Positions 9,701-53,100 of a DNA stretch of 64,000 nucleotides are shown here, one piece after another (the first letter of the stretch is position 1; each line of letters opens with the position of its first letter). The translations under genes and the position numbers were made by a program. The stretch is from Ophelia neglecta (Eukaryota): the NCBI GenBank assembly GCA_965285935.1, contig OZ260666.1, forward strand, positions 67,828,001 to 67,892,000, in the 5' to 3' direction. The notes under the pieces are model-generated. The model worked only from the letters and a program-made list of their open reading frames with translations. It was not told where the DNA came from and made no database searches.

Positions 9701-12700
9701 CGTTGCATCTGCAGTGCTTACATCCAACTGGCCCGATACATTTTCGGCGTTTGTTTGGCCTTCGAACGATACAGTAGGTGGAAGTATTTCAATGTGGCTC
9801 GATGTATTTTGTAAATTGCGATGATCCGTTGTGTTCTGATTCATTGTAACAATCGCAAGTGATGTGTTTTGAATGCTATTTAATGTAACCATCTGATTGG
9901 ATGAATTGTGATAAATTTTCTCAGTCATTGATTCGATCTGGCTCGTTGTATTTTGCATAAGTGTATTGAGTTTGTTCGTTGTGTTTTGAGTGATGGTATC
10001 AATCGCACTCGGTGAGTTTCCGGTCGGGCTATTGGTAGTGTCAAATTGGCTCAATGTGTTGGGAGTAAATGTATCATTTTGACCCGTGGTAGTTTGAGTA
10101 ATTGCTCCAAACTGACTCGATATATTTTGAGTTATTGTATTAAACTGGTCCGTTGTATCTTGACCAATGGTTCCAATGTGGCCCGTCGTTGTTTGAGCAG
10201 TGGTTTCAACCTGGACCGTAATCTTGGTATTCACTCTAGTTGAATTCTGTGATTGTGTAGTTGGCGGGACTGGGTCATCTGATGGCATAAGTTCAGCCGT
10301 CGTTAAGGCAAATCCCGAGTTCGTACCAATTTGCAATATAGTATTCGAAAACATACTGTCATTTTGGATAGGAGTATATCGGGAACTTGAATCGGTGGAC
10401 CATGCCGTATCGGTTGTATTTTCAACCAATGTATCGAACTCACTCGTTGTGTTTTGAGTCATCGTTTTGAGTGTATTAGTTTTGCTTGTAGTATCTCGAG
10501 TGATTCCATCAACGTGGTCCGAAGTATTTCGTGCAATTGTATCGCTGTGGAACGATACATTTTGAGGAATTATTTCAATATGACTCGATGTATTTTGATG
10601 TATTGTATTAATCGCACTTGGTGAGTTTGAGGCCGTACTATTGATAGTATCAAATTGGGTCGATGTGCTGGGAGTAATCGTATCTTTTTGGCCCGTCGTA
10701 TTTTGAGGAATTGTTCCAATCTGACCCAATATATCTAACTGGTCCGATGTATTTAGAGCAATGGTTTCAATCCACCCCGTCGTAATTTGAGTAGTTCTAT
10801 CAAGCTGGTCCGTTATATTTGGATTCAGTGTAGTTGGACTCGTCTGTAGTAATGTGCCACTCTCTGCCGTGGTTTGATTGAATACCTTTGTACTATAAAC
10901 TTCAGACTGATTGTTATAGAAGCCTCTGGAAGTGGATTGCTCTTCTGTCGTCTCCGTTTGTATTTTAGTTGATTGCTGTGAGAATATGGTGCGGGATATG
11001 CGGGAAGACAATTTACCATTTGAACTATTATCTGACTCATTTTGAGTAGTATGCTCCCTTAAATCAGTGAAGGCGCTGTCATTTGAGATTGCCTCAGTCA
11101 TTGAAGGTGATATGACTGAAGATGTTTCATAAATGTGTGGCATTGGGGTATAAGTACTTTGGCCATAAGGGATGTTTAGAGTAGAGGTTGGATTATTTTG
11201 AGTCCCCGTAGTGGCCGACGAAATACGTTCTGTAACAGTGGAAGCCGAATTAGAAATAGCTGGAAATATCTCTGGCAGAGGAGTAAATGCTCCAGGAGCG
11301 TTGTTAGGATTAGGGTGTAATCCCAATTTCAGTGTGGATCTGAACGTGGATGATGCTATAGTTGATTTAGGCATTTCGAATGCCGGGCGTGTTGAATTTA
11401 TATATTTCGTTGTTATCGGGCTATCAGTCGCTTTCGTTTCTAATAAGGTTTTATTTGATGCTGTTACTGGCAATGTTGTTAGATTCGAATTTCTAGATTG
11501 AGTCCAATGAGTACTGTTAGCATGTGTTGTCACCAATGTGCTAGTATTGCTTTCATCTGACAAAGGTAGGAAAGTATTTAGATTTGAGGTTGAACCAGTT
11601 TTTGAAACCGAGGCTGTGTCAATGGATACTGATGTTTGATCGTAAGTTGTTGATATATTCAAAGTGTGTCCTGCTTGGTGTGACAGCCGGTTGGTCGGAG
11701 GAGTTATCGTCAAATAACCCCCTGTAGGGCTTGAATCCTGGTCAGATGTGTCTGTAGAGACAACAATAGCCTCTATACTAGCTGAGTGCTGATTGGCTGT
11801 AGCTAGTTGAGTTATATGGTTATTGGTGCTAGGTCTATCCTGATTAGTTGCCAACATAGATATTACTGGTTCTGAGAGAGTAGACACGCCTTTATTGGTT
11901 GTAACTATTGACGTTGTAGAATCCCCGATAATAGGAGAATGCTGATTGGTTGTTACTTCCGAAATCATATAGTGTCCACTACTGGGAAACTCTTGATTTG
12001 TTGTTTGAACTGGTGCTATTACATTCCCGATACTAGAAGTGTGGTGATCAGTTGTAAATACTGAAGTTATAGTATCCCGGATATTAGGTTCAACCTGATT
12101 GGTTGTATATTTTCGCGTCAGAAGGTCCCCGATTTCAGTGGAATGTGGGTTGGTTGTCACTATTTCTGTTATAAGGTTATTGGCGCTAGAATTCATCATT
12201 GGTTCTGTGTTAGCAGGAGCGTACGTGTTGGTTGTTGTTATCGTTCTTAGATACTGCCCAATACTAGATAAGTCCTGATTGTATGTGACTGTTGGAGACA
12301 TAGTGTCCCTGATACTAGGCGAATCTTGATTGGCTGTCACTCCTCTTGTCATAGAGTTTTCGGTACTATGCGAGTCCTGATCACTTGTATCTATTAATGT
12401 CATTACACTCGGTGTCACCATTGGGATTGTTCCTGATGATAATGTAGAATCCGCCTCTGTAAGGGATATGTCCTCCCCGTTATTAGTTGAGTTTTGACTG
12501 GTTGATTCGTTTGGTGTGAACTCCTCCCAAAAAAACGAGTAATTATAAGGCGTTGCTGATGTTGTTCTTCCAACCACAATGTGAGGTGAATTACGGCTAC
12601 TTGTTGATGTCGGGGTATCTAAGCTACTAGGTGAGGTCTGAATAGGTGTGCTCATTGCTTTAGTTTGGTCAATGGTGCTAGGCGACATGTTATTCTTTGT

Positions 12701-13941
12701 GTTTGTGGATGTAAATGGCTCATCAATGCTAGTTGCATCGTGATTGCGGGAGCCAATAGGCATTATTGGGTTCATGATGCCAACTGCATCTTGATTGGTT
12801 GTGGCTATTTGTGCTATTGGGTCAATGATTTCAGTTGTTGGTTTATCCTGATTGGTGGTAAGTGTTGGTGTTATAAGGTCCTTGATACTAGGTGATTGCT
12901 TGTGACTTGTTTCTGTTAATGCTATATCGACCCCGAATTCCGGTGATTGGCCAGTCGTTGCGTCGCTGGATGTAAAATCATCCCCGATGCGAGATGAGTG
13001 CAGATTGGTTGTTGTTGTTAACAGTGCATTAGTGCCGGAGCTGAGTGACTGATTACTAGTAACTATATTTGACGTCATAATGTGTTCGATACTAATTGAA
13101 CTTCGATCAGTGGTCATATAGTTTCCTATACTAGAAGACTGCTGATTGGTCCTTGTGCTGGTCCAGGTGATATCCCCGATATTAGGTGCATCCTGATTGG
13201 TTGTAACCTTTTGTGTTGGCATTGACGTGGCCATGTTATAATAAGAAACGGTTGTTGTGTTTTTAAATATTGATGTCAAAACCGTTTCTGCTGCCTCCAA
13301 CTCTGTCGATACATTTTTATCTGGTGATAATGTAATGTCGGCAGACATAGTTGAAGTGTCCACTGCAGTCAGCGTGGTCAGGTTAGGACTAACGGCCAGA
13401 GCAGTACCCGCTGTCGTAGACACCTGCTCTTCAGAGGAGGGAATTGATTGTGTTGGGTGCTTGGTAGACGCGCTGGATATATCGTCCAAGTCTCGCTCAA
13501 TGGATGGACTAGTTGGGTCTCCAAGGAACAGCAAAATTGGGGGTGGCGAAACGACTGCAAATTTAAACATAATCGGACAACTCTCAAAAACACTCTTGTT
13601 CCAGATACTAATTTATATGTTCAATATAAAGAAACAATTATATAGTTTAGAATGTTTTTTTAATATCAAATGTTTTTTGAGCTATTGCTTTTATGTACCC
13701 CGTAATTTTGAATTCAATATCAAAGATATTATTACCTACATGTAAGCATAATTAAGGCTATTATTGAATACGCACGTGTTACCAAACATAAATGATTTAT
13801 TAGTTTTCCCAAACCAAATTCTTACGGTATGAAAGAATGAAACAATATCATAAATGTAACAAATCAATGACTTATCCTACCTATTTGAACTGTGAAAGCA
13901 CACAATATATTAATAATCATACAGCATCCCCGAAGAGCCAT
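3742..13941 (-). CDS. Paralog A: lectin-less giant mucin-stalk / 2xTSR / transmembrane protein (about 3030 aa)
   Basis: Exons 13941-13881 (MALRGCCMIINILCAFTVQI, G|gtagg), 13554-5119 (8.4-kb open S/T/N/Q-rich exon), 4754-4608 (TWCQWTAWNVCSKTCNAGYQRRVRFC), 4416-4201 (CNTSPCDEPWSEWFSWGPCSTTCGRGFQSQARSRKC) and 3965-3742 (ADCRPTAVFTGTVGIIFMIACCVIVLGLD plus basic tail). All junctions are GT-AG, phase 1 and in frame. Confidence 0.85.
5560..10700 (-). repeat. Coding tandem repeat, about 6 units of ~700-810 bp (~233-270 aa), in the gene A stalk
   Basis: The SDDP/SDDQ-encoding marker recurs at about 5556, 6366, 7065, 7872, 8682, 9492 and 10272. Long blocks are near-identical between units. Confidence 0.9.
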
Positions 13942-28142: not shown

Positions 28143-29616
28143 ATGGCGACAGCACAGTCAGACGCTCCTGCGGCAGTTGACAAAAACTTACGTGAAATAC
28201 CAGGACTAAACCCTTCACTGAACAATATTCTGTGTGGCCTCGATAGTAAAGGGTTTTCGGAGGTGGTGGAGGATATTTCGCAAGACGTGGAATTAGGAAT
28301 TTTAGCAGATAATAGGTTGATTCTGTCTGAGGTGGCTTTGAACCAATACAGCACGCTATGTGAGGCCGAAAACATCGTCTTTGACGGTAAGCTATATAAA
28401 CTGAAAGACAGAAGGACTGATAGAGCTTTGGCCGAAGATTTGGTAAATTTATATCTTTATATCATGGGATTTAAAGAATTTTTCCCAAAGGATTTGCTTA
28501 AGGATACCAAAAAAATTCCCTAATGTTTTACCAAAGAAACAGGGAAATGGGGCCAAAACCAAGACAGGCATTAAAGATTACACAATTAGCATGGCTGACG
28601 TTTTCCAATACATAACAGATAGTAAGAAGAGAGAACAACAACAAATGGATTTGGTAACATCGGTTAGGATAGAATTAAAGCAGGACATTGAGGCATTGAC
28701 GAATAAAGTCAAAAAGTTAGAGGAAGAAAATGCTTCCCTAAGAAATATTATCGCCGATTTGACCACAGCCCAGCCAGTTGGTAGTACAACAGTAAAAACA
28801 GATGAGAGCAACGCCAACCACTTATGTACAGCTCCCAGCAGGCGCGTTAACGAGGCGGAAAATGACACCAGTGAGAACAGCTCCCTGAAAGCAATACCCG
28901 GGCCAGGTGACAACAGTGGCCGCTGCCAGCTGATTGAGGGCACGAACCCAGAGAAAACCAATCAGCTGATTCAGGGCATGACCCCGGAGAAAACAAATGA
29001 ATACGCACGCGAGGACTTCCCGCCCCTAAGTCTAACACCAGGGCAAAGATCGCCACTGGAACGAGAGGACGACGGCTCTTGGGAGACGCAAATGAGTCGT
29101 CGAACAATAAGGAACCAAAGGGCCCAGGTAAACCATCGAAGTCAAACTGTTCAGCGATCACCCGGCCATCAAAGTGGCACAAACCAGAAAGCCCTGCAGG
29201 GCCGCAAGTGGATGGCCGGTGAAACCCTCTACTTGAGAAATATAGCCGTTGATTACGATGAGCCGGACACCTCAGTAGTGCGGGAGATACGCGGTTATGC
29301 TCGGGACAAAGGCCTCCCCATAATGTCATGTAGAATTATCCACAATAGATATAACGACACTGTCGTTGGGTGCAAGATTTTCATCCCAAAAAACGAAGCG
29401 AACAAGGCAATGGAGCCAGCCTTTTGGCCAAGCGACATTACTTGCCGTAGATGGGAGTCCCGCAACAACAACAGCACTTGATCACGAGGTACGGAAAACG
29501 TCTACTCCGAGAGCGCAAGAGGTGAATACAACGACACAGGGTACCGACAGAACCAATGGAGGTACGAAGAGGATTATAAACAATATACTGACCATCAATA
29601 TGACAATTTTTGGTAA
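28143..29616 (+). pseudogene. Tx1-like ORF1 (coiled-coil nucleic-acid chaperone), interrupted by a frameshift and an in-frame stop
   Basis: ATG at 28143. Frame change at the A7 run near 28509-28515 joins 28143-28523 to the 28591 frame. Heptad coiled coil IELKQDIEALTNKVKKLEEENASLRNII and C-terminal FWPSDITCRRW motif. TGA at 29479-81 is followed by 44 more open codons to TAA at 29616. Confidence 0.75.
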
Positions 29617-29703
29617 AACTGAAAACAATCGGTTAGTAGGTATTCGGACCATCAATATGACAATTTTTGGTAAAACTGAAAACAATCGGTTAGTAGGTAT
29701 TCG
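29590..29703 (+). repeat. 57-bp perfect tandem duplication at the ORF1 end / inter-ORF spacer
   Basis: gaccatcaatatgacaatttttggtaaaactgaaaacaatcggttagtaggtattcg occurs twice in tandem. Confidence 0.9.
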
Positions 29704-29795
29704 GAGTAAGTGCCCCAAGAAGAGCCAGGTGTGTCCTATACTGTGGTATAATAGGTTTTGCTGTAAATCGGGATCTGTCCAACAAGCTGTAAAAA

Positions 29796-32700
29796 ATGGG
29801 GAAACTTAAAATAGCTAGCATGAATGTCAGAGGGTTAGGGGATAAACTAAAGAGACGAGATATGTTTGAATACTTGAGGTCGAAAAGCTGCTCGATATAT
29901 TGCTTACAGGATGTTCATTGTTCGGCAAAAAATGAAAATGTGTTTGAATGTGAATGGGGTTATAAAGTTTTATTTAGTTCGAACAGATCGAATAGCAGAG
30001 GTGTGTGTATTATATTCAATACAGACTTTGAGCATAAAATATATGGGATCAAAAAAGACAATTTGGGAAACATGATTGCTATTGACATCCAGATTGAAGA
30101 TACAAGGTTAACACTTGTAAATATTTACGGCCCAAACAACGACGATCCAAATTTCTATAGGCGATTGGGAGAAACTATAGAACACTTTGAAAATTCTAGC
30201 GTATTAATATGCGGCGACTGGAATTTAGTATTAAACCAATCGCTAGATACAATGAATTATAAGCATGAAAACAACATTAATGCCAAAAGGGTTGTATTAG
30301 ACATGTGTGATACCTATGAGCTAGCCGACCCATGGCGGGTTCGAAACCCAAATAAGCGTGCTTTTACCTGGAGACAGAAAACTCCGTACAAAGCCGCCAG
30401 ATTAGACTTTTTCTTGGTGACAGAGGACATTCTAAATATATCAGATAGTGTAGAGTTTCTCCCTGCTCACCGCACAGACCATTCTCTTATAGTCTTGAAG
30501 ATTAAAACAAGTGAGCAGGAACGCGGTAAGGGGCTCTGGAAACTTAATACATCCCTGCTTGGCGACCCATTGTACGTCACAGGGGTCAAAAACCTTATAA
30601 ATCGCACTATTAGACAATATGTAAGGGATGAAAAAGTTCCCACGCTGCAAGACGCGAAACTTAGCATATCGGAACAGCTTTTTTGGGATACCTTAAAATC
30701 AGAAATAAGAGGTTTTACAATACCTTACGCGGCGGCCAAGAAGAGGGCCATTAATTCAGAAGAAACCAACTTACTGAAAGAAGTGTCGATTTTAGAAAAT
30801 GTTATAAGTAAATACCATGATTGTACCAATTTGGATAACAGTATATACTCGACCGAAAATTTAATACTCTCATTAGAAGAAAAGAAGGCCAGCCTTGAAA
30901 TTATACGAACGGCAAGGGTAAAGGGGATTATGCTAAGGGCAAAAGCTAGGTGGATTGAAGATGGGGAAAAATCGTCAAAATACTTCTGTAGCCTTGAAAA
31001 GAGGAATTATGTGTCAAAGCTTATAAATAAGCTAGATGATAACGGAAAAATAATTACAAACCAAAACGACATTTTGGAAATACAAAAGAAATTCTACGAG
31101 AACCTTTATACTAGCAAGCAGAAGACTCCCAAATATATCGATTTCTTCCTAAATGATACTAATGTTACAAAAATAGAAAGAGAACAATCAAACAGCTGCG
31201 AGGGGCCAATAACGGAAATCGAAGTTAAAATGGCCTTAAATAATATGTCTAACGGGAAGAGTCCGGGGTCGGATGGTTTTCCGGCTGAATTTTATAAATT
31301 TTTCTGGCCAGATCTTGGGAAATTCGTGGTGAGAGTTTTAAACGAAGGTTACGAGAAGGGAGAGCTGTCAATAAACCAGAGGCAAGGTATCATAACTTGT
31401 CTGCCCAAAGGGCAAAAACCAAGGGAGTTTCTCAAAAACTGGAGGCCAATTTCGCTCCTAAACACAGACTATAAACTCTTGGCTGCAGTATTGGCTAACA
31501 GGTTGAAACCAGTCTTGAGTGATATCATTGGTAACAATCAAAAAGGGTTTTTGAAGAAGAGATTTATTGCTGAGAACACTCGACTTGTTTATGACCTTAT
31601 AGAACACTTCAAAGATACGAAGCGCTCGGGATTAATAATGTTGGCGGATTTCGAAAAAGCCTTCGATTCTATCGAATGGGATTACATCAAGATGGTACTA
31701 TCTAGCTATGGGTTTGGACCTAGTTTTATAAAGTGGTTCAGGGTTCTGTATAAAAACTCATGCAGTTGTGTGATAAACAACGGTCATTTTTCTCAGTTTT
31801 TTAATTTAGAAAGGGGTTGTAGGCAAGGTGATCCCCTGTCCCCCTACATTTTCATACTAGCAATAGAACCATTGGCAAAGGCAATTTTGAATGACTCGAA
31901 AGTTAAGGGTATTAAAATTGGGGATTACGAATTCAAACTTGGCCAATACGCTGATGATACCTTTACCCTACTAGACGGGTCCCCCGCTTCCCTGAGGGCA
32001 CTTATGTCTATCTTTTTTAAATTCGAAAAGGTGTCCGGGTTAAAGGCAAACACAGACAAAACTGAGGCAGCATGGTTCGGGCACAACTCGCATTTAAGAA
32101 AACCAATATGTTGTGAAATCAAACTTAGGTGGGTGACTCAGTTTAAATTGCTTGGAATAATTTTTACTGCTAGCCTAGAAAACATGGAGGAGTTAAACTT
32201 TAGGGAAAAAATCAGTGAAATTATAAAAATAATCAAACTGTACGAAAAACGCAGTCTTAGCTTGATGGGAAGAGTATGTGTACTGAAAACTCTGGTTATT
32301 CCAAAGCTCATAAATGTACTGTCTGTACTACCGACACCGTCAAAAAGTATTGTAGATGAATTGAATAATATTTTGAACTTGTTCGTATGGAGTAATGGCA
32401 GGCCAAAAATTAATAAGTCGGTGATGGCTAAGTCATACGAACACGGTGGTATAAAACTGACCAAACTAGATGTGCTAATGCAGGCTCTCAAGCTTGCTTG
32501 GGTTAAAAGGTATCTGGAGTCGGATGGAGATTGGCAGGTTCTGTTAAAACACGTGGTCCAGTTTATGAACCTCGGTAATATCTGGTATCTTGATGTGAAA
32601 AGCCTGAGCAAAATTGAAGGTCAGGTTAGTAGTCGGTTCTGGCGAGAGACAATAACGGCGTGGATAGCTTTTTTGAAAACTCAGAATGTTACTTATGCTG

Positions 32701-33608
32701 ACATATGTAAGAGGCCAATATGGCTACTGAATCTGAAACATAATAACCTTCAGAAGATTGCTCCTAGGCTAATAAAATTAGGATGTTTGTCACTAGAAGA
32801 TTTGTTTGATAAAGACACTAAGCGGTTGTTAAACTATCCTCAGTTTTGTCTTACGTATAGCAAGGTAAACTACCTAGACTACGCAAGCCTCTTAGCGTCG
32901 GTGCCGCCTGATTGGATCCGCCGGGTAGAACTCGGACCATTCGATACAGAATTGTCAGGCATAAATACTTTATTATCTTGCAAAAAGGCTTGTAGCACAG
33001 TATATAATATTTTGGTACATGCTACAGAAAGTGTTGTTAGAAGCAAAACTAAGTGGTGCTCCGTTCTCCAAGATTGTATTCCGGAGTCGGACTGGAAAAA
33101 ATATTTTAAAATACATATGCAGTGTACTATGGATGCGAAATTGAGGAGTTTCCAATACAAAGTGTTACATAGGATACTGCCAACAAATAGGTGGCTAGTA
33201 AAGTGTAAACTAAAGATATCAGCTTTGTGTGATTTATGTGGTATCAGTGAAGAAACGATAGAGCATATTTTCTGTGAATGCCCGGTTGCAAAGAAAATTT
33301 GGTCACAGGTTATTGAATGGTTGAACTTTGACTCAAATTGTGAGGGAAAAGAAGTTAAGAAAAATATATGTCTGGGATCTCTGGACACCACAATAAGCGC
33401 CGATTGTATTAATCTGATTACCCTGTTAGTCAAAAGATTTATTTACATTAGGAAATGTATGGAGAAAAAGCCAACTTTCAAAGAGTTGCAACTATATATA
33501 AAAAGTACGTACGAAGCTGAAATGCTTATTGGCAACGGTAATGGCAGCACCAAGGAGAGAATAGAGAAAAAGTGGGAACCTGTCAAAACTAAAATAGAGA
33601 GAGTATAA
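29796..33608 (+). CDS. LINE ORF2p: APE endonuclease + reverse transcriptase + CCHC zinc finger (Tx1/L1 clade)
   Basis: SMNVRGL, GDWN, RLDFF and TDH (APE); KSPGSDG, NWRPISLLN, DFEKAFDS, GCRQGDPLSP and YADD (RT); CDLC-x8-H-x4-C finger. 1270 aa uninterrupted. Confidence 0.95.
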   Translation: MGKLKIASMNVRGLGDKLKRRDMFEYLRSKSCSIYCLQDVHCSAKNENVFECEWGYKVLFSSNRSNSRGVCIIFNTDFEHKIYGIKKDNLGNMIAIDIQIEDTRLTLVNIYGPNNDDPNFYRRLGETIEHFENSSVLICGDWNLVLNQSLDTMNYKHENNINAKRVVLDMCDTYELADPWRVRNPNKRAFTWRQKTPYKAARLDFFLVTEDILNISDSVEFLPAHRTDHSLIVLKIKTSEQERGKGLWKLNTSLLGDPLYVTGVKNLINRTIRQYVRDEKVPTLQDAKLSISEQLFWDTLKSEIRGFTIPYAAAKKRAINSEETNLLKEVSILENVISKYHDCTNLDNSIYSTENLILSLEEKKASLEIIRTARVKGIMLRAKARWIEDGEKSSKYFCSLEKRNYVSKLINKLDDNGKIITNQNDILEIQKKFYENLYTSKQKTPKYIDFFLNDTNVTKIEREQSNSCEGPITEIEVKMALNNMSNGKSPGSDGFPAEFYKFFWPDLGKFVVRVLNEGYEKGELSINQRQGIITCLPKGQKPREFLKNWRPISLLNTDYKLLAAVLANRLKPVLSDIIGNNQKGFLKKRFIAENTRLVYDLIEHFKDTKRSGLIMLADFEKAFDSIEWDYIKMVLSSYGFGPSFIKWFRVLYKNSCSCVINNGHFSQFFNLERGCRQGDPLSPYIFILAIEPLAKAILNDSKVKGIKIGDYEFKLGQYADDTFTLLDGSPASLRALMSIFFKFEKVSGLKANTDKTEAAWFGHNSHLRKPICCEIKLRWVTQFKLLGIIFTASLENMEELNFREKISEIIKIIKLYEKRSLSLMGRVCVLKTLVIPKLINVLSVLPTPSKSIVDELNNILNLFVWSNGRPKINKSVMAKSYEHGGIKLTKLDVLMQALKLAWVKRYLESDGDWQVLLKHVVQFMNLGNIWYLDVKSLSKIEGQVSSRFWRETITAWIAFLKTQNVTYADICKRPIWLLNLKHNNLQKIAPRLIKLGCLSLEDLFDKDTKRLLNYPQFCLTYSKVNYLDYASLLASVPPDWIRRVELGPFDTELSGINTLLSCKKACSTVYNILVHATESVVRSKTKWCSVLQDCIPESDWKKYFKIHMQCTMDAKLRSFQYKVLHRILPTNRWLVKCKLKISALCDLCGISEETIEHIFCECPVAKKIWSQVIEWLNFDSNCEGKEVKKNICLGSLDTTISADCINLITLLVKRFIYIRKCMEKKPTFKELQLYIKSTYEAEMLIGNGNGSTKERIEKKWEPVKTKIERV

Positions 33609-40155: not shown

Positions 40156-40257
40156 TAATAAAAATGGAGAATATATTTTTGAAAAATGGAGAATATGTTT
40201 TAGTTATCGAAACATTGACAATATTGTAGTATAGGTCATGTCTCTATCAATATACTA

Positions 40258-43200
40258 ATGGCTAGCACTATCACTGACTTGGAGGACTTTTCTGTGACCA
40301 TGACCACAACTTCACGTTATTATTCAAGGTCAGAATTTTGTAATCTCCAAAATGAAAATGATTCATTGTTGATTTTAAACCTTAATATAAGATCTTTACT
40401 AAATAAGAAGCACGAAATTGAATCTCTGCTACAGGAGATGGCTATGAACAATAAGGTACTAGATGTTCTGACACTAGAGGAGACTTGGCTTACAAATGAA
40501 AATGAACAGTTGGCTGCATTGGAAGGATACACATCTATTTTTAAACATAGGCCTGCAAAAATTGGTGGCGGTCTTGCTATATATGTACGAAATGGCCTAA
40601 ACTATACTGTACGCGATGATGTATCAATTGATCATGAATATTATGAAAGTTTATTTATAGAAATTAACTGTACAAGTTTGCGTCCCAAACTTCTAATTGG
40701 AACATTTTACCGGCCCCCAAATCATAGTAATATAACTCAATTTACTAACTATATTGAAACTACTCTTAACAAAATAGAATATGGAAATATTGATTGCATA
40801 CTTACCGGTGACATGAACATAGACCTTCTAAACACTACAACCCACAGATCATCCTCCGAGTTCATTGATGCCCTTACTTCTCTTAGCTACATTCCCTTAA
40901 TATCTCTTCCAACACGTGTCACCCCGTCATCAGCTACTCTCATTGATCATTTATTTCTCAAATTCAATCCAAACCTGCAGTACACTGCCGGTACCATACT
41001 CTCATCCATATCAGATCATTATCCTAACTTCGTGTATCTGCACAAAACCTGTACTTCTAAACAACCCACACCTAAACTATACACGTATAGAAAATACAAT
41101 CCAAGAAATATTAATAATTTCACTCAAAGTATGTATCTACAAAATTGGGAAAAGGTAATCCAAGATTGTAAAGACAACAATACCAATAAAGCATATGCAA
41201 ATTTTCAACAAATATTAAAACAGACCATGGATAAACATATTCCAGAAGTAACAAGGAAATTTAACAAATACAAGCATAAGGACAAACCATGGGTAACACA
41301 TGCAATAATTCGTTCAATTCAAACAAGAGACATATTATCTAAACGGAGAAATAAAAGCAAACAAAAACCAAACTATGATGAAATCAACGCACATTTTCTG
41401 GAGTATAGGGCAATCCTCGATAAAGTAATCAAGCAAGCAAAAGCAATACATTGGGATATACGATTTAAGCAATCCTATAACAACATAAAACAAACATGGA
41501 TGAACATAAAGGAAATATTAGGTTCCCAACGCAGTAACAACATACAAACCCTCTTCTATGATCGGGATAACCACAAAATAACAGACCCATCTCTTATAGC
41601 TAATCATTTCAATACATTCTTCACCAATATTGGCGAAGAAATAACAAACAATTTATCACAAAATACCAACATAAACTATAAAAGTTTCATGAATGACCCC
41701 ATAGTAAACTCTATCTTTTTAAACGAGGCAACTGCAGCCGAAATAAAGAAAATAGCTATTCACATGAAACCAATATCATCTTGTGGCTTTGACAATCAGT
41801 CCCCAAAATTTATTAAACAAATCCTTCCTTCTGTTATTTTTCCTTTATTACAGATTTTTAACAGTATGATCAAAACGGGTGAATTTCCAGAGGACATGAA
41901 AATATCAAAGGTACTTCCTTTCTATAAATCAGGTGACCTAACAAATGTTACAAATTACAGACCTATTTCAATCCTACCTACATTTTCCAAAATATTCGAA
42001 AGGCTGATATACAACAGATTATATAATTTTTTCACCAAGCAAAATATATTTTTCCCTTCTCAATATGGCTTTAGAAAACATCATTCGACGGAACATGCAA
42101 CCCTAGAACTAATAGAACACATTACCCAGAAACTAGACCAAAAGGAACATGTTGCTGCAATATTCATAGACCTTACCAAAGCTTTCGACACTATCAAACA
42201 CACTATTCTACTTCAGAAACTATTTCATTATGGCATAAGGGGTACACCCCATAATCTATTGAAAAGCTATCTCTCTAATAGGTCTCAATATATTGTCTTC
42301 AAACAAAAATCATCAGAATTACTAAAACAGAAAGTTGGTGTACCTCAAGGGTCAATCCTTGGGCCCTTATTCTTCTTAATTTACATAAACGACATATATA
42401 AATCACTGAATACAACATCATTACCTATCCTGTTTGCTGACGACACCAGTGTAATTATTCATAATAAACATTTAGAGAGGTTATACAATAACATCAATCA
42501 CGAACTCTTAAATATACTAATCTGGATTAAATCAAATTTCCTATCCCTCAACATTAAGAAAACTAAATTTATGATCTTCAAAAACTCTTACAACCCACCA
42601 GACCGGATTCCCGATTTATTTAGAGTAAAAATAGACAATACAATAATAGAACAAGTTTCTACATTCAAATTTCTTGGCATACATATTGATGAACATCTCA
42701 ATTGGAAAACGCACATAAATGAAAAATGTAAGAAAGTGTCCCAAATCATAGGGCTGATGAATCGCCTAAAACAATATCTTCCAACATACATTCTAAAAAT
42801 TATCTACAATTCTTTAATACAACCTCATCTCTTTTATGGTATCACAGCCTACTATAACTGCACAAACTTGTCAACATGCAATAGACTTTTTCTCCTTCAG
42901 AAACGGGCCATGTCAACCATCTCAAAATCATGGGACCTGGCCCATACGGAACCACTTTTCAAATCGCTCAAAATTCTAAGATTAAATGATCTATATTTTG
43001 TCAAAGCATTAAAAATCTATTTCAACATCATACAATCCAAATGCCCAAACTTTACAAAACAATCAGTTGAACTTGTTGACCAAGGCAAAAAACAATACTA
43101 CACCAGAAACAATGACGTTATTGTAAGAAAACCCTTTAGAACAAACATTATTAAACAATGTCTTTGGTTTAAACTGCTCAGTGTCACCAACCAAATCCTT

Positions 43201-43320
43201 CACCACTACAAAATACCACTAAGTCAATCATACAACTACAAAGCATATTTCATAAATGCATATATTAACACCTGTAATATAAATAGCTGTTACATATGTA
43301 ACAAAACTCTTCTTGTCTGA
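40258..43320 (+). CDS. LINE ORF2p: APE endonuclease + reverse transcriptase (L2/CR1 group)
   Basis: NLNIRSL, EETWL, GGGLAIYV, YRPP, GDMN and SDH (APE); NYRPISIL, QYGFR, DLTKAFDT, GVPQGSILGP and FADD (RT); C-terminal CxxxxCYxC. 1020 aa intact. Confidence 0.95.
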   Translation: MASTITDLEDFSVTMTTTSRYYSRSEFCNLQNENDSLLILNLNIRSLLNKKHEIESLLQEMAMNNKVLDVLTLEETWLTNENEQLAALEGYTSIFKHRPAKIGGGLAIYVRNGLNYTVRDDVSIDHEYYESLFIEINCTSLRPKLLIGTFYRPPNHSNITQFTNYIETTLNKIEYGNIDCILTGDMNIDLLNTTTHRSSSEFIDALTSLSYIPLISLPTRVTPSSATLIDHLFLKFNPNLQYTAGTILSSISDHYPNFVYLHKTCTSKQPTPKLYTYRKYNPRNINNFTQSMYLQNWEKVIQDCKDNNTNKAYANFQQILKQTMDKHIPEVTRKFNKYKHKDKPWVTHAIIRSIQTRDILSKRRNKSKQKPNYDEINAHFLEYRAILDKVIKQAKAIHWDIRFKQSYNNIKQTWMNIKEILGSQRSNNIQTLFYDRDNHKITDPSLIANHFNTFFTNIGEEITNNLSQNTNINYKSFMNDPIVNSIFLNEATAAEIKKIAIHMKPISSCGFDNQSPKFIKQILPSVIFPLLQIFNSMIKTGEFPEDMKISKVLPFYKSGDLTNVTNYRPISILPTFSKIFERLIYNRLYNFFTKQNIFFPSQYGFRKHHSTEHATLELIEHITQKLDQKEHVAAIFIDLTKAFDTIKHTILLQKLFHYGIRGTPHNLLKSYLSNRSQYIVFKQKSSELLKQKVGVPQGSILGPLFFLIYINDIYKSLNTTSLPILFADDTSVIIHNKHLERLYNNINHELLNILIWIKSNFLSLNIKKTKFMIFKNSYNPPDRIPDLFRVKIDNTIIEQVSTFKFLGIHIDEHLNWKTHINEKCKKVSQIIGLMNRLKQYLPTYILKIIYNSLIQPHLFYGITAYYNCTNLSTCNRLFLLQKRAMSTISKSWDLAHTEPLFKSLKILRLNDLYFVKALKIYFNIIQSKCPNFTKQSVELVDQGKKQYYTRNNDVIVRKPFRTNIIKQCLWFKLLSVTNQILHHYKIPLSQSYNYKAYFINAYINTCNINSCYICNKTLLV

Positions 43321-45677
43321 TATTGTACGTCGTATATATTTGTCTGCACACAGCAGTTTATTAGTTTTCTGAAATGTTTAGTGATTTCGTCACGCTTAAT
43401 ATTGTACATCATATATACTATGTCTCAAAGGGGCGGCCAGCAAAAACGGCAGATGCTATAGCTGGCGTCCAGAATAAATGTATTTCAATCAATTCAATCA
43501 AAAACACCTTGGTTATTTGGAAACTAAATTCAACCAGTTAACCACAGGCTGGTGCACTGTTATATATCAAGGATTCTAATTATTACTATAACTAACCTTT
43601 GCATTAGTAGTAAAAGTTCTCACAAATAAGTTTAGCGGTCTTCAACTATACCACACTGGGCAGGGTATCAAGCGGTTACGCATTGTCAATTGAGGTATTG
43701 TTGTAAGTAGGATATGCGGAGCATAGATTCAATGATATGTCTTTCCATTCATTTATTGTTTAAGACGGTAAAAGTGCTTTAGCTGAAATGACCTAGCCGA
43801 GGTTAATTTCCATGGCTTTCAATAAAGTACTGAACATGTTTAGTTTCATTTGAAAATGTGATTGCGTTCCATACAGCATAATTCAAAGAGATTTGTAGCA
43901 TATTTTTGTTTGCTGAAAAATAACCTTGGTTTTTACATTACATACCTATTATTTATTACTTGATTTCATTAGTTTATAAGGCAGCTTGTCTAACTTGCAA
44001 TGTGCTTTGATATACTTGCAAAAGATCGATAGCTGGGTGTCTCTTAAAATATATTGTGAATTTATCACGTTGTTGTATAACTTTGATAAGAATGTTTATC
44101 ATATTGGTGAATGAATAATTTGTTTTAGATTGTCAGCCTCGTGCTTACAGAAACGAGGACCACAAACCGAATTCAGAAGTGAGTAAAAGTCAGCTGCAAA
44201 CCTAAGTTCATTGATTCCCAGGTCCATAATTTGAGATAAGATTGTAACGAAATATAAATAAATGTAAAATGTTGTATCGCTTGCAATTAGAAGTAATTTA
44301 TTGTGCAGTCGAATAAATAACACCACAAAACACTTTGATCTAAATTGACAAACAATTTGAATAGAAAGCCATACCAAACGCATCGATGGGCTGCCTTTAT
44401 TCAACAAAGTATGATTTTATCGTTTGAGATTATCAACCAACCATTGTATCGGCAGCTTGAATCATACCTTTAAACTACCAGAATACACGTTAATGGGCTG
44501 GAGTCGGGAGCTAGATTGTTTACGATTAATACAAGTCAAGTCGGATACACGGATGTAATATAACTACTAGTGTGAGAGAAATGAATGCTGACTATTAATA
44601 GATGTCGCTGAATTTTAACAGTGCACTCGAGTGAACTTGACATTATGTGCCCTTTCCAATGAATGAACATGGTCAATTTGCGGTATTTGGTTGGAGACGC
44701 GCCAAAACAAATATATGCATTGCAGGTAGGAGATAGCATATAAACCCAGATTGTAATATGCAGTTAGTGCGATAGGCGATGTGAGGTTTTGACCAGTTCG
44801 TATCAAGTAGGCCAGACACACTAATTCCCAGTGCTTATTGTCGATGATTCGCCATTTTGTTTTCGGGCTGTTCACTGTAATTTAGGTATAAAACAGGTAT
44901 GTAGGTTGTGTACCCTCTGCTGTCTGCAACCATATTGTTGTTAAGGTAGGCTTTTGTTCTCAGCCTATATAATATAGTCGATTTTGCTGGTGTTTCGTGA
45001 CACTATGTGTGTTTAATCAGTAGATTCCCAGACTATCCTAAATAGCTGGCCAAAACATGTACGTCTGATGAAAAATTCGCATTAGGGAACACCCGATTTA
45101 AATGCTATGTATGCTTCAGACCTCATTGTACAGAATTATGTGCTTGTGTGGACAGATATTGCATTAAAAGTGTCTGTTGGTGATGGACTTATCTCGAATT
45201 TAATGCACAGTGTGGGCACTTTTTTATAGTTCAGAATTCATTTATACTTATAATTAATGAATTGCTCTCCCATGATCAATGGTGATATAATTCACTAATG
45301 AGGCCACTTTGGTCTTTTCCTTTACAATCGCTGCAGAGTGTTATGGGTAATTATCTGGTGCTGACACCTGTTGGGCAGAAGATTATTCCAGAACTGTTGT
45401 TCCCTCTGTTACATGTTGGTACTGCAGGAGGACATTAGCTTGCTTGGCTCCATCATCTCAAATCATCATCTAATAACTCACAGTATGCTATTCTCCTTTT
45501 CATTTTCATTAAGATTTATGAATCCAACCGATACAAACAATTGTTCCCTTTCGTTGGTAACTCTTGTGAACGTGTAAAGACAATCCAGACGCGTGAATAT
45601 ACCCTTATTTGTTTTTTCTACAATAACGTTTGGTAAGCCTGTTGCAGTATTTTGTTGATGTATTTTAGGTGTCAAAT

Positions 45678-47453
45678 ATGGAATACTTTAGATCCCTAAA
45701 GGCAAGGATAGTTCAGGCAATATCACGTAGATCCCAACGATTAGGCATGGGTAGGGGAGGACTTATCAACGAACGGGCGCTTTCTCGTATCTGCCCTGAG
45801 GACATGTTGGACGCCATTAGAAGGGAGAGATACGGTGATTACGAGAACTTCCGCTGTGCGGATCCTGAGGAAGCATTATTGAGGTTGGATAGAGCCTCTC
45901 ATGTTCCGAATGACTCCGAGCAAACTGTCCTCTTCCGACAAACCATAGAATCATATGTTAACACATTGGCGAAGGAGCTCTCCGCTGTGGACTTTCCCCA
46001 ACTGGGCAAGGTCACATTCACTCCAAAACCCATGGGAAGCTTCCCATGCAACACCAAAGTCGGTGATATCGACGAATTCGATTACATACTGCTTCTTGAA
46101 AATAGCAAATTGGAGGAAGATTTTCTTAAAAACGCCGAGGAGGCAAAAAAGAATGGACGATTCGAAACAAAATATGAAAATCCTGCCACCTTCGATAAAG
46201 AAGGAGCTAAATTCGGTTTAGACATTTTATTAGAACGTATAACAACATTGATACACACTAAATGTGATTTGGATGTAAGTTCAGGCATACTGACTAGAAA
46301 TTGGGTAGGTTTAACGGACTTTTACTCACATGGTCCCGCCATCTGTGTGGAGTTAGGCTGGAGATGTCCCCGAGGTCACAGGCATCACGTGGGTATAGAC
46401 CTGGCCTTTGGATTTCTACTAAACAACTGGCCTCTTAGTGAATATCTCCAAGAGAGACAACTCAAACGCGGTGACCAGGCATTACCGGCGGAGGTATATG
46501 ATCGCATGTGTGAAAAGGTCGGCATGAAAAACACAATGTTTGTTTACAACGGAATGGAATGGGTCATGTCAGCAAGTGTCCTGGATCAACCAATGTTTGA
46601 AACACTGCAGGAAATGTTTCCAGCTATCATTACTGCATTTAGAATTTTAAAGCTGATTTCATCGAACATTCTGCCATCTAAAATATTATGTAGCATTAAG
46701 GGGTACCGGCGATGTAAAGTGACCAATCTGATTAGCTCCTATTATTTGAAAACACATGTTTTTACCTTAATCTGCAATACCTCGAGTGTTGAAGAATGGT
46801 CACGACACACCGTGTATGATATTGTACATACGGTTCTCGGTGTACTCTGTGAGGCTATAGAACAAAAAGAATTCTTTCTCGATTTCTTCCATCAGGGGAT
46901 TTACTGTACCAAGGTTTTCCCACCGAGCGACCTGTATAATGAACAGGCGTGGTATACTGCTGAGGAAGCAGCGAGTGACCTGAGGGCTTTGATCCGCTTT
47001 CTCGAATCGTTAGACGATATGAAAAGTATTCAACTGAAGGAGCACTCTTCAATCATATATATAAGGGAAAAACGGCGGACTCATCGAGCAAATAAGTCAT
47101 TCCTAGATACATATTATCCTGCAGAGATCTCTAAAATGTTCGTCCACAAATACAACGAGGCGATCTACAGAAAGCACCACCTGATACGAATGTGTGACGA
47201 ATACACGATAGCATTTTATCAAAAAGACAAGGGAATAGATCTTGAAACAATACACAACTCATATATTGTCAGGCTGTGGAATAAATACGCGAGAGGATAT
47301 CTGTCTCTGGAGCTGATGCTTTCATTTAACAAAAAAGTATCTCTGTTTAAGAATTATCTACGTAGACATGATAGAAGCGAGGATGATGTCGTCTCTGTTG
47401 CCCAGGCTTATGACAGCGGCAGAATTACTGAGGATACTCTATTAGGTTCGTGA
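45678..47453 (+). CDS. cGAS-like receptor (Mab21-family nucleotidyltransferase, cGLR), single coding exon
   Basis: GSFPCNTKVGDIDEFD has the same spacing as cGAS GSYYEHVKISAPNEFD. HGPA strand, third acidic residue in GIDL, and Mab21 C-lobe motifs FRILK and ISSYYLKT. Splice acceptor ttttag at 45663-45668 lies just before the ATG. Confidence 0.85.
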   Translation: MEYFRSLKARIVQAISRRSQRLGMGRGGLINERALSRICPEDMLDAIRRERYGDYENFRCADPEEALLRLDRASHVPNDSEQTVLFRQTIESYVNTLAKELSAVDFPQLGKVTFTPKPMGSFPCNTKVGDIDEFDYILLLENSKLEEDFLKNAEEAKKNGRFETKYENPATFDKEGAKFGLDILLERITTLIHTKCDLDVSSGILTRNWVGLTDFYSHGPAICVELGWRCPRGHRHHVGIDLAFGFLLNNWPLSEYLQERQLKRGDQALPAEVYDRMCEKVGMKNTMFVYNGMEWVMSASVLDQPMFETLQEMFPAIITAFRILKLISSNILPSKILCSIKGYRRCKVTNLISSYYLKTHVFTLICNTSSVEEWSRHTVYDIVHTVLGVLCEAIEQKEFFLDFFHQGIYCTKVFPPSDLYNEQAWYTAEEAASDLRALIRFLESLDDMKSIQLKEHSSIIYIREKRRTHRANKSFLDTYYPAEISKMFVHKYNEAIYRKHHLIRMCDEYTIAFYQKDKGIDLETIHNSYIVRLWNKYARGYLSLELMLSFNKKVSLFKNYLRRHDRSEDDVVSVAQAYDSGRITEDTLLGS

Positions 47454-50104: not shown

Positions 50105-53100
50105 CTATCCAATCATGTTGCTCACTATTACTTTTTTCCGACTCTTAGATCTGAAGCTGATACGGTCTACTATGCCACGCGCACCACACAGTCCAATTCC
50201 GCTGCCATTTCCGGTTTTTTGTTTCTGTTCACGTTCTAACTCTCGTCGAACTCTCACACATCGGACCTGTCTGACACAGTCATGAAAAAGTTTGATCACG
50301 TGTGCGTTCGAGAGTTTGGCGGATGATTCGTAAAAGGACACTCCGAGGTCAAACGCCGCGCTTCGCCCCTCCTCCTCAGATAAACACCGCTCTCGGAGAG
50401 CGTCTATTTTATTTCCTTAAAAAGATAACTCAGACTTAATAAGCATAATATAATTAAAATACATATTGAATACGTTTCAATTCTATTTCAGCGATGAAGA
50501 AAATAATGCCGTGAAAAGGTGATGATCTATATTACCGACTAGAACCACAGGGAGATCACGTTCTCGTCTCACGTGAAGAATGTACGAGAATAGCTGCTGG
50601 ACGATCTGGAGACTCCTCCTATCGGTGACGGAATATACTAAGATGAAGCCATCTGTTGTTATGATAGTCTGCCGCATGGTGATGTCTCGGTGCTTAAACT
50701 ATGTGGTTTAGAAAGTGGTAAACATTCATTAGAAATTAATAGAAAATGTTATTGATATGATGCATGATCATCGAATTCTTTAATATTACAATGTTTTAAT
50801 ATTAATTCGGAACAAATTAAGCATAAAACATTGAAATCAATATAGTCAGAGTACAATTTCAATAAAGCCAAATGTGATTGAAATTGTCCAACAAACTGAT
50901 ATTAAGAAGGGTTAGTTGTGAGATATTGTTCGTAGAAACTTGTTAGGATGTTAACCTCCCGGGTCCATCTTATAGTGTGAAAGAAAAGACAGGAAAAAGA
51001 TTGTTTGATACGTGTGTTTTCTCTTTGTTTGCAATCGTGGTGAATCATTCTGTTTTGTATCGATAAGCGCCACCTACCGGGAATTCTGTGCTTATTTCCA
51101 CTACTTTCAGCGGCGATACGTCACCATCAACCTCCTCTATTTTTACGGCGCCACCTAACGGAGAAAACAAAAAAAATCAGCTTCTTCAGGTCACTCTAAG
51201 AAACGTGCCGATGGGATTTTTTTTTGTAGTTGGGGAAGATCTGCGTGAAGCCAGCCAGCTAGACAAAATTATCACCTACTATAAGGAACAATGGGTAAAT
51301 CAAACTATGATAAATATGAAAACATATGACGTATCTATGAAATTGATTGTGAAAAAAATGATGATTGCAATTTGGCAGTCATTTAGTCAGGCCTTTTATT
51401 CCAACTGCTTTTAGATTTTCTTTCATCCTTTTTGGAAACCAGAGTTTCGACAGAAACCACGCTACAGCTATTAAAGGGCGGTCTTGAGATCTTTTAATCA
51501 CCAGTCATGTTCATGCTCTTTAAACATAGCATAAGCATCATTAGAAATTAATTTAATTTGAAATAGTTAGATAAGCAAGCATCAAATCGGCGCCATACAT
51601 ATTCCAAAACAGTTAAATTGTATTCGTTCTGGTGCCATGTAAAAATCAAATTTGCGGTGCCAAATTTCCCTACGCTCAATAATAAGAAAGACGGATTGTC
51701 CAATTATGAGCCTTTCGTCGAACTCGATATAACATCATTTCCAAACCTGACGTGGGAGAAGGAATGCAGGTATTTATTGGCTATTACCAATATACATGTA
51801 GCATTTCACCTTTTCCCTGATTCTATAGACGAATTAATTTAAATACCAATCATGCATATTTTCCCTGGGTTCTCCGTATGAGAGCAGAACTAACATTGAA
51901 TTCCATAAACGCTTGTAATATTTCTACTACTGCTTGTAAGTATCACAGGGACTGGCCAAGCCGTTACTATGAGTTTACTTATCGAATGATTTGAAACACT
52001 AGCAACAAGTAATTGGGCTAAAATGCCCCCGCATTTTTTTTTCTTCTGAGGTCGCTTCAGGCAATATAAGAATTGGAATGAGAAAATTCCCGCCAGATCT
52101 GTCGCAGATGGCAAAATGATGTAGCTTACATAGCCAGATGGAAGGTACAGCCATCTAAGCAGCATTGAAGGCTCATCTCGTATCGCTCTAAGCTCAAGCT
52201 GTACGGTAGATGGAATCAAAGCAACTTGCCAGGGTATCCTTCTATATCTTGCTGGCAGATCTTGAGAGGGGCCACGGGGTCAGACCCCCCCCCCCCCCCC
52301 ACCACCACCTCCAGATGCTTCAGAGAGTCTCGAGTGAGTTGGATGGTTAAGATAGGGGGCTAAGGATCCATGCCCCTCTGGGAAGACACATTAAAACCTC
52401 ACCCACACGATGAGACTGATAGGAATGCTAATTGAGGGGAGGTTAGGGGGCCCCCGTTACCAGTTCCCAGTTTGAAAAATGGGCAAATCCCGATTAACGG
52501 ATGTTTGAAGTCTACATTTTTTATGCCATTAGAGATAAAGTATTTCCCGCATCCGGATAAATTGAATTTGTGATTGCCCAGTCCCCTAATTATGTGCCTA
52601 CAAACATTCAAATATCTCGTTGTGTATATAGGAGGCAGATATGTGTCTCTCCCAGGGCACTACATGCTCAGTTTGATACAATGAACGGCCGTGCGGCAGA
52701 TAATATATTGTTAAAGACAATCCAAACAGAAGATGAAAACTTGTTCTTGTTTAAAACATGAAATAAATATTTAGGTTAGACAGTAAACAGACTTAATTGC
52801 ATTGCAAGTATATCAGTTGTACATGCGAGGTAATAACCTTTAAATAACTTTCTCATGGCGACCAAATCTATGGTAATTTTAATCATACCGACTAATCAGG
52901 CCATATAATCATTATGACTAAGGGCATAATCATACCGACTTAGTCCGTAATCATACGGATTAAGTCCCTAATCATCCCGACTAAGGCTTATTGTCATACC
53001 GACTAAGGACAAGTAAACGGTATATTTTCGCGGTGGACTTTTATCATCATAAAAGAAACGGCCGTTTTGTTTGGAGATTATCGATTTGTGCTGAAATATA

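Follow-up and report, generated by a model that had tools for sequence, protein, structure and literature searches.

A Divergent cGAS-like Nucleotidyltransferase Gene of Ophelia neglecta with a Predicted Zinc Site and a Large Family of Paralogs

Introduction

The established activators of animal cGAS-like receptors (cGLRs) are dsDNA and dsRNA (PMC9980059). According to the parts of that paper covered here, one or the other activates 9 of its 15 enzymes characterised in detail, and the cGLRs that sense dsDNA or dsRNA have a pI >8.5. Non-nucleic-acid ligands were proposed for acidic cGLRs, and none is named in its passages on acidic cGLRs. The same parts recognise a cGLR by a [DE]h[DE]...[DE] triad, a G[SG] loop 8–20 residues upstream, two-lobe homology and the predicted fold; the written motif has Q or T before GS and X50–90 before the third acid. 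Large cGLR expansions, many cGLRs alongside few STINGs, and fusions with ankyrin have already been described there as well. Besides cGAMP, invertebrate cGLRs make cUA isomers. In the covered parts of PMC8410604, the cGAS zinc ribbon is absent from other cGLRs, and human MB21D2 has a neutral groove, a C-terminal addition and a putative triad, yet no activity was observed.

Here, we describe a gene found in a 64,000-nucleotide stretch of the Ophelia neglecta genome (hereafter, the window). An earlier note, made from the letters of this stretch, took it for a single divergent receptor. The intact cGAS-like gene is borne out by our analysis; its membership in a large modular family had been missed. 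We suggest that the gene likely encodes an active cGAS-like enzyme, for which we infer a cGLR-like function, and that it likely represents a new variant branch of the cGLR family.

Results

Gene Structure and Selection

The ORF at 45678–47453 (+) encodes 591 aa, and its translation contains all the motifs quoted in the earlier note. The following features were recognised (window coordinates).

45650–45668 (+): pyrimidine-rich tract and AG, a likely splice acceptor, in frame; seen in the sequence, with the same layout at 5/5 paralog loci inspected.
45678–47453 (+): single large coding exon of a cGAS-like nucleotidyltransferase, 591 aa; ORF translation and 24 allelic differences without indel or stop.
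45678–45767 (+): residues 1–30, basic tail of pI 12, low confidence (pLDDT 47–50) and unconstrained (0 synonymous and 5 non-synonymous differences).
45768–45857 (+): residues 31–60, conserved N-terminal element with Cys39 (45792–45794), a candidate fourth zinc ligand; C39 in 63/70 rows, pLDDT 87–97.
45858–47012 (+): residues 61–445, cGAS-fold core (NTase lobe and helical lobe), pI 5.33; structure matches 8gjw and 7v0c.
46035–46082 (+): G120-S121 loop, K127 and catalytic E133-F-D135; conservation in alignment rows.
46359–46400 (+): elongated beta-hairpin W228-x-C230-x3-H234-x-H236 with catalytic D241 at its end, a predicted metal site; conservation, model and insertion relative to cGAS and Sp-cGLR1.
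46689–46715 (+): CSIKGYRRC (338–346), variable beta-hairpin located where cGAS has its zinc-thumb region; strands 334–338 and 346–350, C338 in 2/79 and C346 in 5/76 rows.
46734–46754 (+): SSYYLKT helix (353–359; S354, Y355, K358), aligned with the cGAS SYHVK motif; S354 in 77/79 and K358 in 62/78 rows.
47013–47450 (+): residues 446–591 (146 aa), family-specific C-terminal domain of three short strands followed by helices, pI 9.2; common to paralogs and outside relatives.

The AG of the acceptor (45667–45668) lies 9 nt upstream of the ATG, so an upstream 5′ exon is probable, and the gene probably consists of this exon and one large coding exon. Three sequencing runs from one sample cover the intergenic DNA evenly and without joints. 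In the same sample, the 24 allelic differences leave the frame free of indels and stops; codons 31–591 contain 13 synonymous and 6 non-synonymous differences (pN/pS 0.125, binomial p 1e-5), and all five differences in codons 1–30 are non-synonymous. As seen in this sample, the gene is maintained under purifying selection and its first 30 residues are unconstrained. The tail is also not conserved among relatives.

In each of the three runs, 45614–45733 is also matched by a second contig, which has 7 differences and continues into unlike sequence upstream of 45614; it represents either another haplotype or a partly copied 5′ end. Elsewhere in the window, a mucin-like gene occupies 4139–37727 (−), with a 2833-aa Thr/Ser/Asn-rich frame with long internal repeats at 5111–13612, a TSP1-like exon at 4139–4495 and further Thr-rich exons. 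Two LINE retrotransposons, at 28447–33608 (+) and 40219–43320 (+), encode endonuclease and RT in frames of 1271 aa and 1033 aa, respectively; the former element also has a coiled-coil ORF1. The last exon of a Ras-family GTPase gene (50105–50416, −) converges on the cGLR gene.

Predicted Fold and Catalytic Residues

A single-sequence PDB search with the query returned only a chance-level match, Pfam gave Mab-21_C alone and below the cut-off, and no Pfam Mab-21 match was found in the 21 family members searched. The single-sequence fold reached pLDDT 34; the AlphaFold2 model built from a 94-row alignment reached pLDDT 84 and pTM 0.88. This model has the cGAS/Mab21 fold anticipated in the earlier note. 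Its top structural matches were cGAS and cGLRs, including mouse cGAS (7v0c; Z 20.9, rmsd 3.8, 314 aligned) and Cv-cGLR1 (8gjw; Z 19.0, rmsd 3.9, 314 aligned, model residues 61–443), and scores on DNA-bound cGAS (Z 20–20.9) were slightly higher than on apo cGAS (18.5–19). CD-NTases, MiD49 (Z 16.4), MAB21L1 (16.3) and MB21D2 (15.5) came next, and TUTases scored 11–14. Since these next matches also reach Z 15–18, the product is not fixed by the fold. Profile comparison aligned positions 73–356 of family profile A2 with residues 39–351 of Sp-cGLR1 (8gjy; E 3.4e-19), and the same profile matched cGAS at E 6e-11; the homology takes in the NTase core as well as the helical lobe. The search of viral structures gave no sign of a viral origin: one Hyperionvirus protein had E 8e-5 and rmsd 13.

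The catalytic signature reads G120-S121, 11 residues, E133-F-D135-Y and then I-D241-L. The GS, EFD and D residues singled out in the earlier note are indeed present and invariant in 21/21 aligned relatives at 20–31% identity. In the wider alignment, the conserved residue was found in 82/84 (G), 81/84 (S), 81/84 (K127), 80/86 (E133), 81/86 (D135) and 81/84 rows (D241); overall, catalytic and nucleotide-binding residues are kept in 77–82 of 78–86 rows, with the exception of K358. The cGAS spacing ascribed to the triad did not hold along with its residues: D135 to D241 spans 105 residues, and the spacing as counted in the written motif is 103, above the published X50–90; the family median is 83 (n = 77). 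From what is known of the cGLR family, the enzyme is likely active.

Of what PMC9980059 uses to recognise cGLRs, in its parts covered here, the query has the triad with the GS loop, the two-lobe homology and the predicted structural homology. It departs from the written motif at two details, namely M119 in place of Q/T and the third-acid spacing, and is therefore filed as a cGLR-like variant, not as a written-motif match. Within the branch, the residue before GS is most commonly Ile (32/84; Thr in 9), and the spacing is in range in 63/77 rows. The query also stands apart from developmental MAB21L proteins, as the earlier note had supposed: identity is 12%, and the genome's own MAB21L1-like gene, located on another contig (C7:54.96 Mb, E 4.7e-104 to 5eog), falls outside the query's branch in a tree that included one of its exons, 44% filled.

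The Elongated Hairpin and Cys39

The insert WRCPRGHRHH corresponds to residues 228–237, immediately preceding D241. Its description in the earlier note as a candidate metal-binding insert is strengthened by the conservation of C230, H234 and H236, which are invariant in 21/21 aligned relatives at 20–31% identity. The note had seen these hairpin Cys and His residues and missed C39. In the wider alignment, the four positions are conserved in 87–90% of rows (C230 74/85, H234 72/83, H236 75/83 and C39 63/70). The next-best conserved Cys and His, C223 (56/85) and H218 (57/87), lie at the opposite end of the strand. The hairpin strands (221–229 and 235–252) were modelled by AlphaFold2 at pLDDT 92–94, and the profile alignment places before D241 an insertion of 8 residues relative to human cGAS, 6 relative to mouse cGAS and 5 relative to Sp-cGLR1.

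The two Cys and two His are conserved like catalytic residues and therefore suggest one zinc site. From this conservation, the hairpin probably binds a metal; C39, assuming that it lies close by in space, may well complete the site as the fourth ligand. Such a Cys2His2 site (C39, C230, H234, H236) would differ from the cGAS zinc ribbon.

Among rows spanning both sites, Cys39 was present in 50/55 with the full hairpin versus 2/5 without it (Fisher p 0.014). By eye, the Cys persists in 2–3 of 6 relatives lacking the hairpin, and the relative P0020 has the hairpin with Tyr in place of Cys39; the coupling thus appears to be partial. Since the hairpin-less rows included in the tree form one small branch, they are not independent losses. 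Four ankyrin-fused paralogs retain a Cys motif ahead of the core, three of them with the full hairpin. The hairpin and Cys39 are family traits and not unique to the window's gene.

Regions Flanking the Core and the Zinc-Thumb Position

The N-terminal region, estimated in the earlier note at ~90 aa, is really ~60 aa long, since residues 61–102 match the first helix and the spine helix of cGAS. The C-terminal extension of ~150 aa was closely estimated: 146 aa lie past the cGAS fold, which ends near 443–445. The flanking domains therefore exist, but they are not novel to this gene, since they are common to the whole family. Searches with the C-terminal domain yielded only chance-level matches in PDB sequences (E 0.37) and Pfam.

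CSIKGYRRC does precede SSYYLKT. However, it was rejected as a metal motif, and the second Cys pair proposed earlier falls with it, as its cysteines are rarely conserved (see the feature list). The absence of an H-x5-CC-x6-C zinc thumb was confirmed by a profile gap opposite TCCENKEEKCC of human cGAS.

Paralogs and Outside Relatives

At least 74 paralogous places were found with the query in its own genome, a lower bound, as 74 of 182 candidates were scored. Beyond these, at least 79 Pfam Mab-21 matches lie in clusters on many contigs; among the Mab-21 matches listed, none coincides with any of the 74 places. Long single frames are typical of the query's family. In the tree, the query groups most closely (SH-aLRT 91) with five paralogs at C8:6.84–7.83 Mb (L003, L004, L006, L019, L031). 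A coiled-coil insert stands ahead of their C-terminal domain, and the longer of them also bear a ricin-B-like tail (E 2e-4, below the cut-off). A second query revealed ankyrin-fused members (L117–L121) at C2:112.56–112.99, C7:51.18, C8:75.56 and C1:119.60 Mb with frames of 859–1832 aa; one ankyrin-fused member lacks the hairpin Cys and retains both His.

Word-based searches for homologues each found a single protein; a full HMMER profile scan gave 256 outside proteins at E 0.001 and 51 at 1e-30. Among 30 relatives looked up, one is a named entry, an uncharacterised protein of Mytilus californianus, so that the branch reaches Mytilus. Two outside relatives of ~1450–1500 aa (P0007 and P0015) have a repeated OTU-like region beyond the C-terminal domain. 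For a quick ML tree, rows were picked by the family profile, and 111 of 171 gathered rows were used after dropping those without the GS motif or shorter than 290 aa; hairpin columns were kept. The query lies within a 33-row group (SH-aLRT 99). All 47 hairpin-labelled rows fall inside one 55-row branch, which is weakly supported (SH-aLRT 81) and in which a few labels are misses of the search pattern.

GSFPC, GSFPLN, HSVSLDL and the Mytilus accession gave 0 matches in six supplement files of PMC9980059. Likewise, GDIDEFD, HGPAVC and HGPGVC gave 0 matches in its table of 3,000 cGLR sequences, where Mytilus is well represented, and SLDLA occurred there in two unrelated proteins only. By this motif test, the branch is likely absent from the published table, the cells of which were possibly cut at 400 characters. 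A literature search, with subscription journals mostly outside its coverage, returned no description of the hairpin or of the repeat array.

Tandem Array with Variable Repeats

A tandem array of at least 55 paralogs extends over ~1.5 Mb (G000:C5:107.39–108.92 Mb; L043–L050, L067–L112). Its frames reach 3091 aa and contain 0–45 alternating repeat units of 51–76 aa (~55 aa), belonging to no named family, after the C-terminal domain. The catalytic acids, the hairpin, the C-terminal motif and at least one repeat are united in a single frame at 41/55 places; 17/55 finish with either of two common C-termini and have 6–45 repeats, and 13/55 are without repeats. Array members have a proline/serine-rich insert inside the C-terminal domain, and many copies are truncated.

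In the repeats, the Trp, Phe, Asp and Leu structural positions are fixed and the others are variable. Pairwise dN/dS, measured for the core in 38 major-subtype genes, was 0.45; for the two unit types it was 0.74 and 0.83, based on 150 units sampled from 216 and 221, respectively, with repeat numbers taken from the assembly. The repeat units are under relaxed constraint; positive selection on them was not found, the pairwise dN/dS being below 1. Affiliation of the repeat to Soc or other Pfam families was rejected: no single stretch was significant, the A/B unit was under the cut-off, and the apparent match was treated as summed noise. Outside the array, a single true repeat copy was found in each of two dispersed paralogs (L034, 43.5 bits; L002, 20.6 bits), and none in the query, whose last helix (YDSG...) scored −4.1 bits and was rejected as a copy.

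Charge, Putative Product and STING-like Genes

The core of the query has a net charge of −13 at pI 5.33, and its spine helix is net acidic, with 4 basic versus 7 acidic residues. A by-eye count gave a core pI <7 in 54 of the 65 rows listed. Nucleic-acid sensors are characterised by pI >8.5 and a basic groove; the pI of the query is below this value both for the core and for the whole protein (6.65). Because the core is acidic, a ligand other than dsDNA or dsRNA is moderately probable. The earlier proposal of a sensor for some other ligand is thus favoured by the core, and the basic tail and C-terminal domain leave room for nucleic acid.

For the unusual product also proposed earlier, there is one weak hint: V296 occupies the place of the Arg in cGAS WRLS, a position with Arg in 18/81 family rows. 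A STING_LBD profile search of the same genome gave 4 exon matches above the cut-off at 3 places. These are STING-like genes (L051–L054; G000 C1:101.73 Mb, C9:39.9 and 50.1 Mb), and the copies at C1 and C9:39.9 Mb have an extra short exon just upstream, TIR-like by eye. A cyclic dinucleotide product acting on STING is moderately probable.

Discussion

We propose the following scheme for the gene and its branch. A ligand, probably not double-stranded nucleic acid, would switch the enzyme on, and the activated enzyme would make a cyclic dinucleotide for STING. The Cys2His2 zinc site would clamp the N-terminal element onto the elongated catalytic hairpin, and these two parts, together with the C-terminal domain, would form the constant scaffold of the branch. 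The window's gene would be the plain form, and its paralogs would add ankyrin, ricin-B-like or variable repeat modules setting recognition. Taken as a whole (an intact cGAS-fold enzyme, a cyclic dinucleotide to STING, a non-double-stranded-nucleic-acid ligand and a zinc clamp), this is our best explanation, and we regard its chances as about even.

The ligand could instead be the usual one. In an ordinary dsRNA/dsDNA-activated cGLR, the nucleic-acid contact would have moved from the spine groove to the basic tail (pI 12) and the C-terminal domain (pI 9.2), and both the 9/15 enzymes that answer dsDNA or dsRNA in the covered parts of PMC9980059 and the slightly better fit of the model to DNA-bound cGAS are in keeping with this. 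We consider it unlikely, in view of the acidic cores throughout most of the family, the net acidic spine and a tail that is neither constrained nor conserved. Rather improbable, too, is a Mab21-fold enzyme or adaptor without cyclic-dinucleotide signalling, which would nucleotidylate protein or RNA, or serve in protein contact like MiD49/51. The scores of MiD49, MAB21L1, MB21D2 and TUTases, the Val for the WRLS Arg, the ankyrin and OTU-like fusions pointing to protein targets, and family genes far outnumbering the STING places would all fit such a protein. Nevertheless, cGAS and cGLRs are the top structural and profile matches, the triad is complete, and many cGLRs per few STINGs, as well as ankyrin fusions, were already described for cGLRs.

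Two further alternatives concern Cys39 and the state of the gene. The N-terminal element, L-x3-C-x3-hydrophobic, fits the BC-box pattern. If it were a BC-box-like binding helix, C39 would lie outside the metal site of a cGLR, and the hairpin would be a three-ligand site with a position open for a partner or a redox switch. An HMM of the element matched four relatives (E 0.003–0.05), a partly circular result, as these rows are in the alignment, and some hairpin-less relatives retain the Cys. However, Thr or Pro follows the Cys in 56/67 rows and the model breaks the helix at this point; none of 21 members had a SOCS_box match at E 0.1, a weak test for a short motif; and in ankyrin-fused paralogs, inspection by eye picked out another BC-box-like stretch, distinct from the element and located farther upstream. 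A BC-box-like role for C39 is therefore quite improbable. Hardly credible is a silent or decaying retro-copy between LINE elements. The single coding exon, the RT-bearing LINE ORFs at 29793–33608 and 40219–43320 and the many truncated array paralogs might bring it to mind, but long single frames are usual in this family, a splice acceptor stands ahead of the ATG, the motifs are intact, the other alleles are without indel or stop, and pN/pS is 0.125.

A bolder extension of the zinc-clamped, STING-directed reading, which we hold to be doubtful, is that the branch is a diversified receptor repertoire. A constant zinc-clamped core would be joined to ankyrin arrays or, within the 55-gene cluster, to 6–45 copies of a new two-unit solenoid repeat that has variable positions, each gene having a different non-nucleic-acid target reported by a cyclic dinucleotide. 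NLR and lamprey VLR repeats recognise targets in a manner comparable to that proposed for the repeat modules. Within such a repertoire, the sensor-less gene of the window may be a shared partner or a direct responder to a protein ligand.

With its predicted zinc site and swappable modules, the acidic branch offers concrete enzymes and mutants for the question of non-nucleic-acid ligands. Pfam hardly detects this branch. The branch also suggests that the cGLR numbers published for some invertebrates are underestimates. Taken singly, the gene is one divergent representative of a known large family; the greater part of the interest lies with the branch and the repeat array.

Comparison with Known Systems

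Bacterial CD-NTases (CdnB 7ljo, CdnD 6p82 and CdnE) share the superfamily fold with the query (Z 14–18), but identity is 10–14%, and the gene, which is outside any CBASS operon, belongs to an animal genome of 762 Mb where several chromosomes bear paralogs. MAB21L1 and MB21D2 have the Mab21 fold in common with it (Z 16.3 and 15.5), and MB21D2 further resembles it in its neutral groove and C-terminal addition (PMC8410604), whereas identity is 10–12%. Vertebrate cGAS gives the highest structural score, and its GS..EFD..D, LK and SYHxK motifs align with those of the query. Unlike in vertebrate cGAS, the zinc thumb H-x5-CC-x6-C is absent and the predicted metal site occupies a different element, the spine is not basic, and the WRLS Arg is replaced.

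Like the animal cGLRs Cv-cGLR1 (8gjw), Sp-cGLR1 (8gjy) and Tc-cGLR (7lt2), the query has a two-lobed caged fold, a GS loop and an acidic triad; the lack of the cGAS zinc ribbon, the large expansion in one genome and the occurrence of some ankyrin fusions are also shared. In contrast to these proteins, with which its identity is 12–16%, the query gives only a Mab-21_C match below the Pfam cut-off and has an acidic core, a conserved N-terminal Cys element, a 146-aa family-specific C-terminal domain and a hairpin that is 5 residues longer than that of Sp-cGLR1 and bears C-x3-H-x-H.
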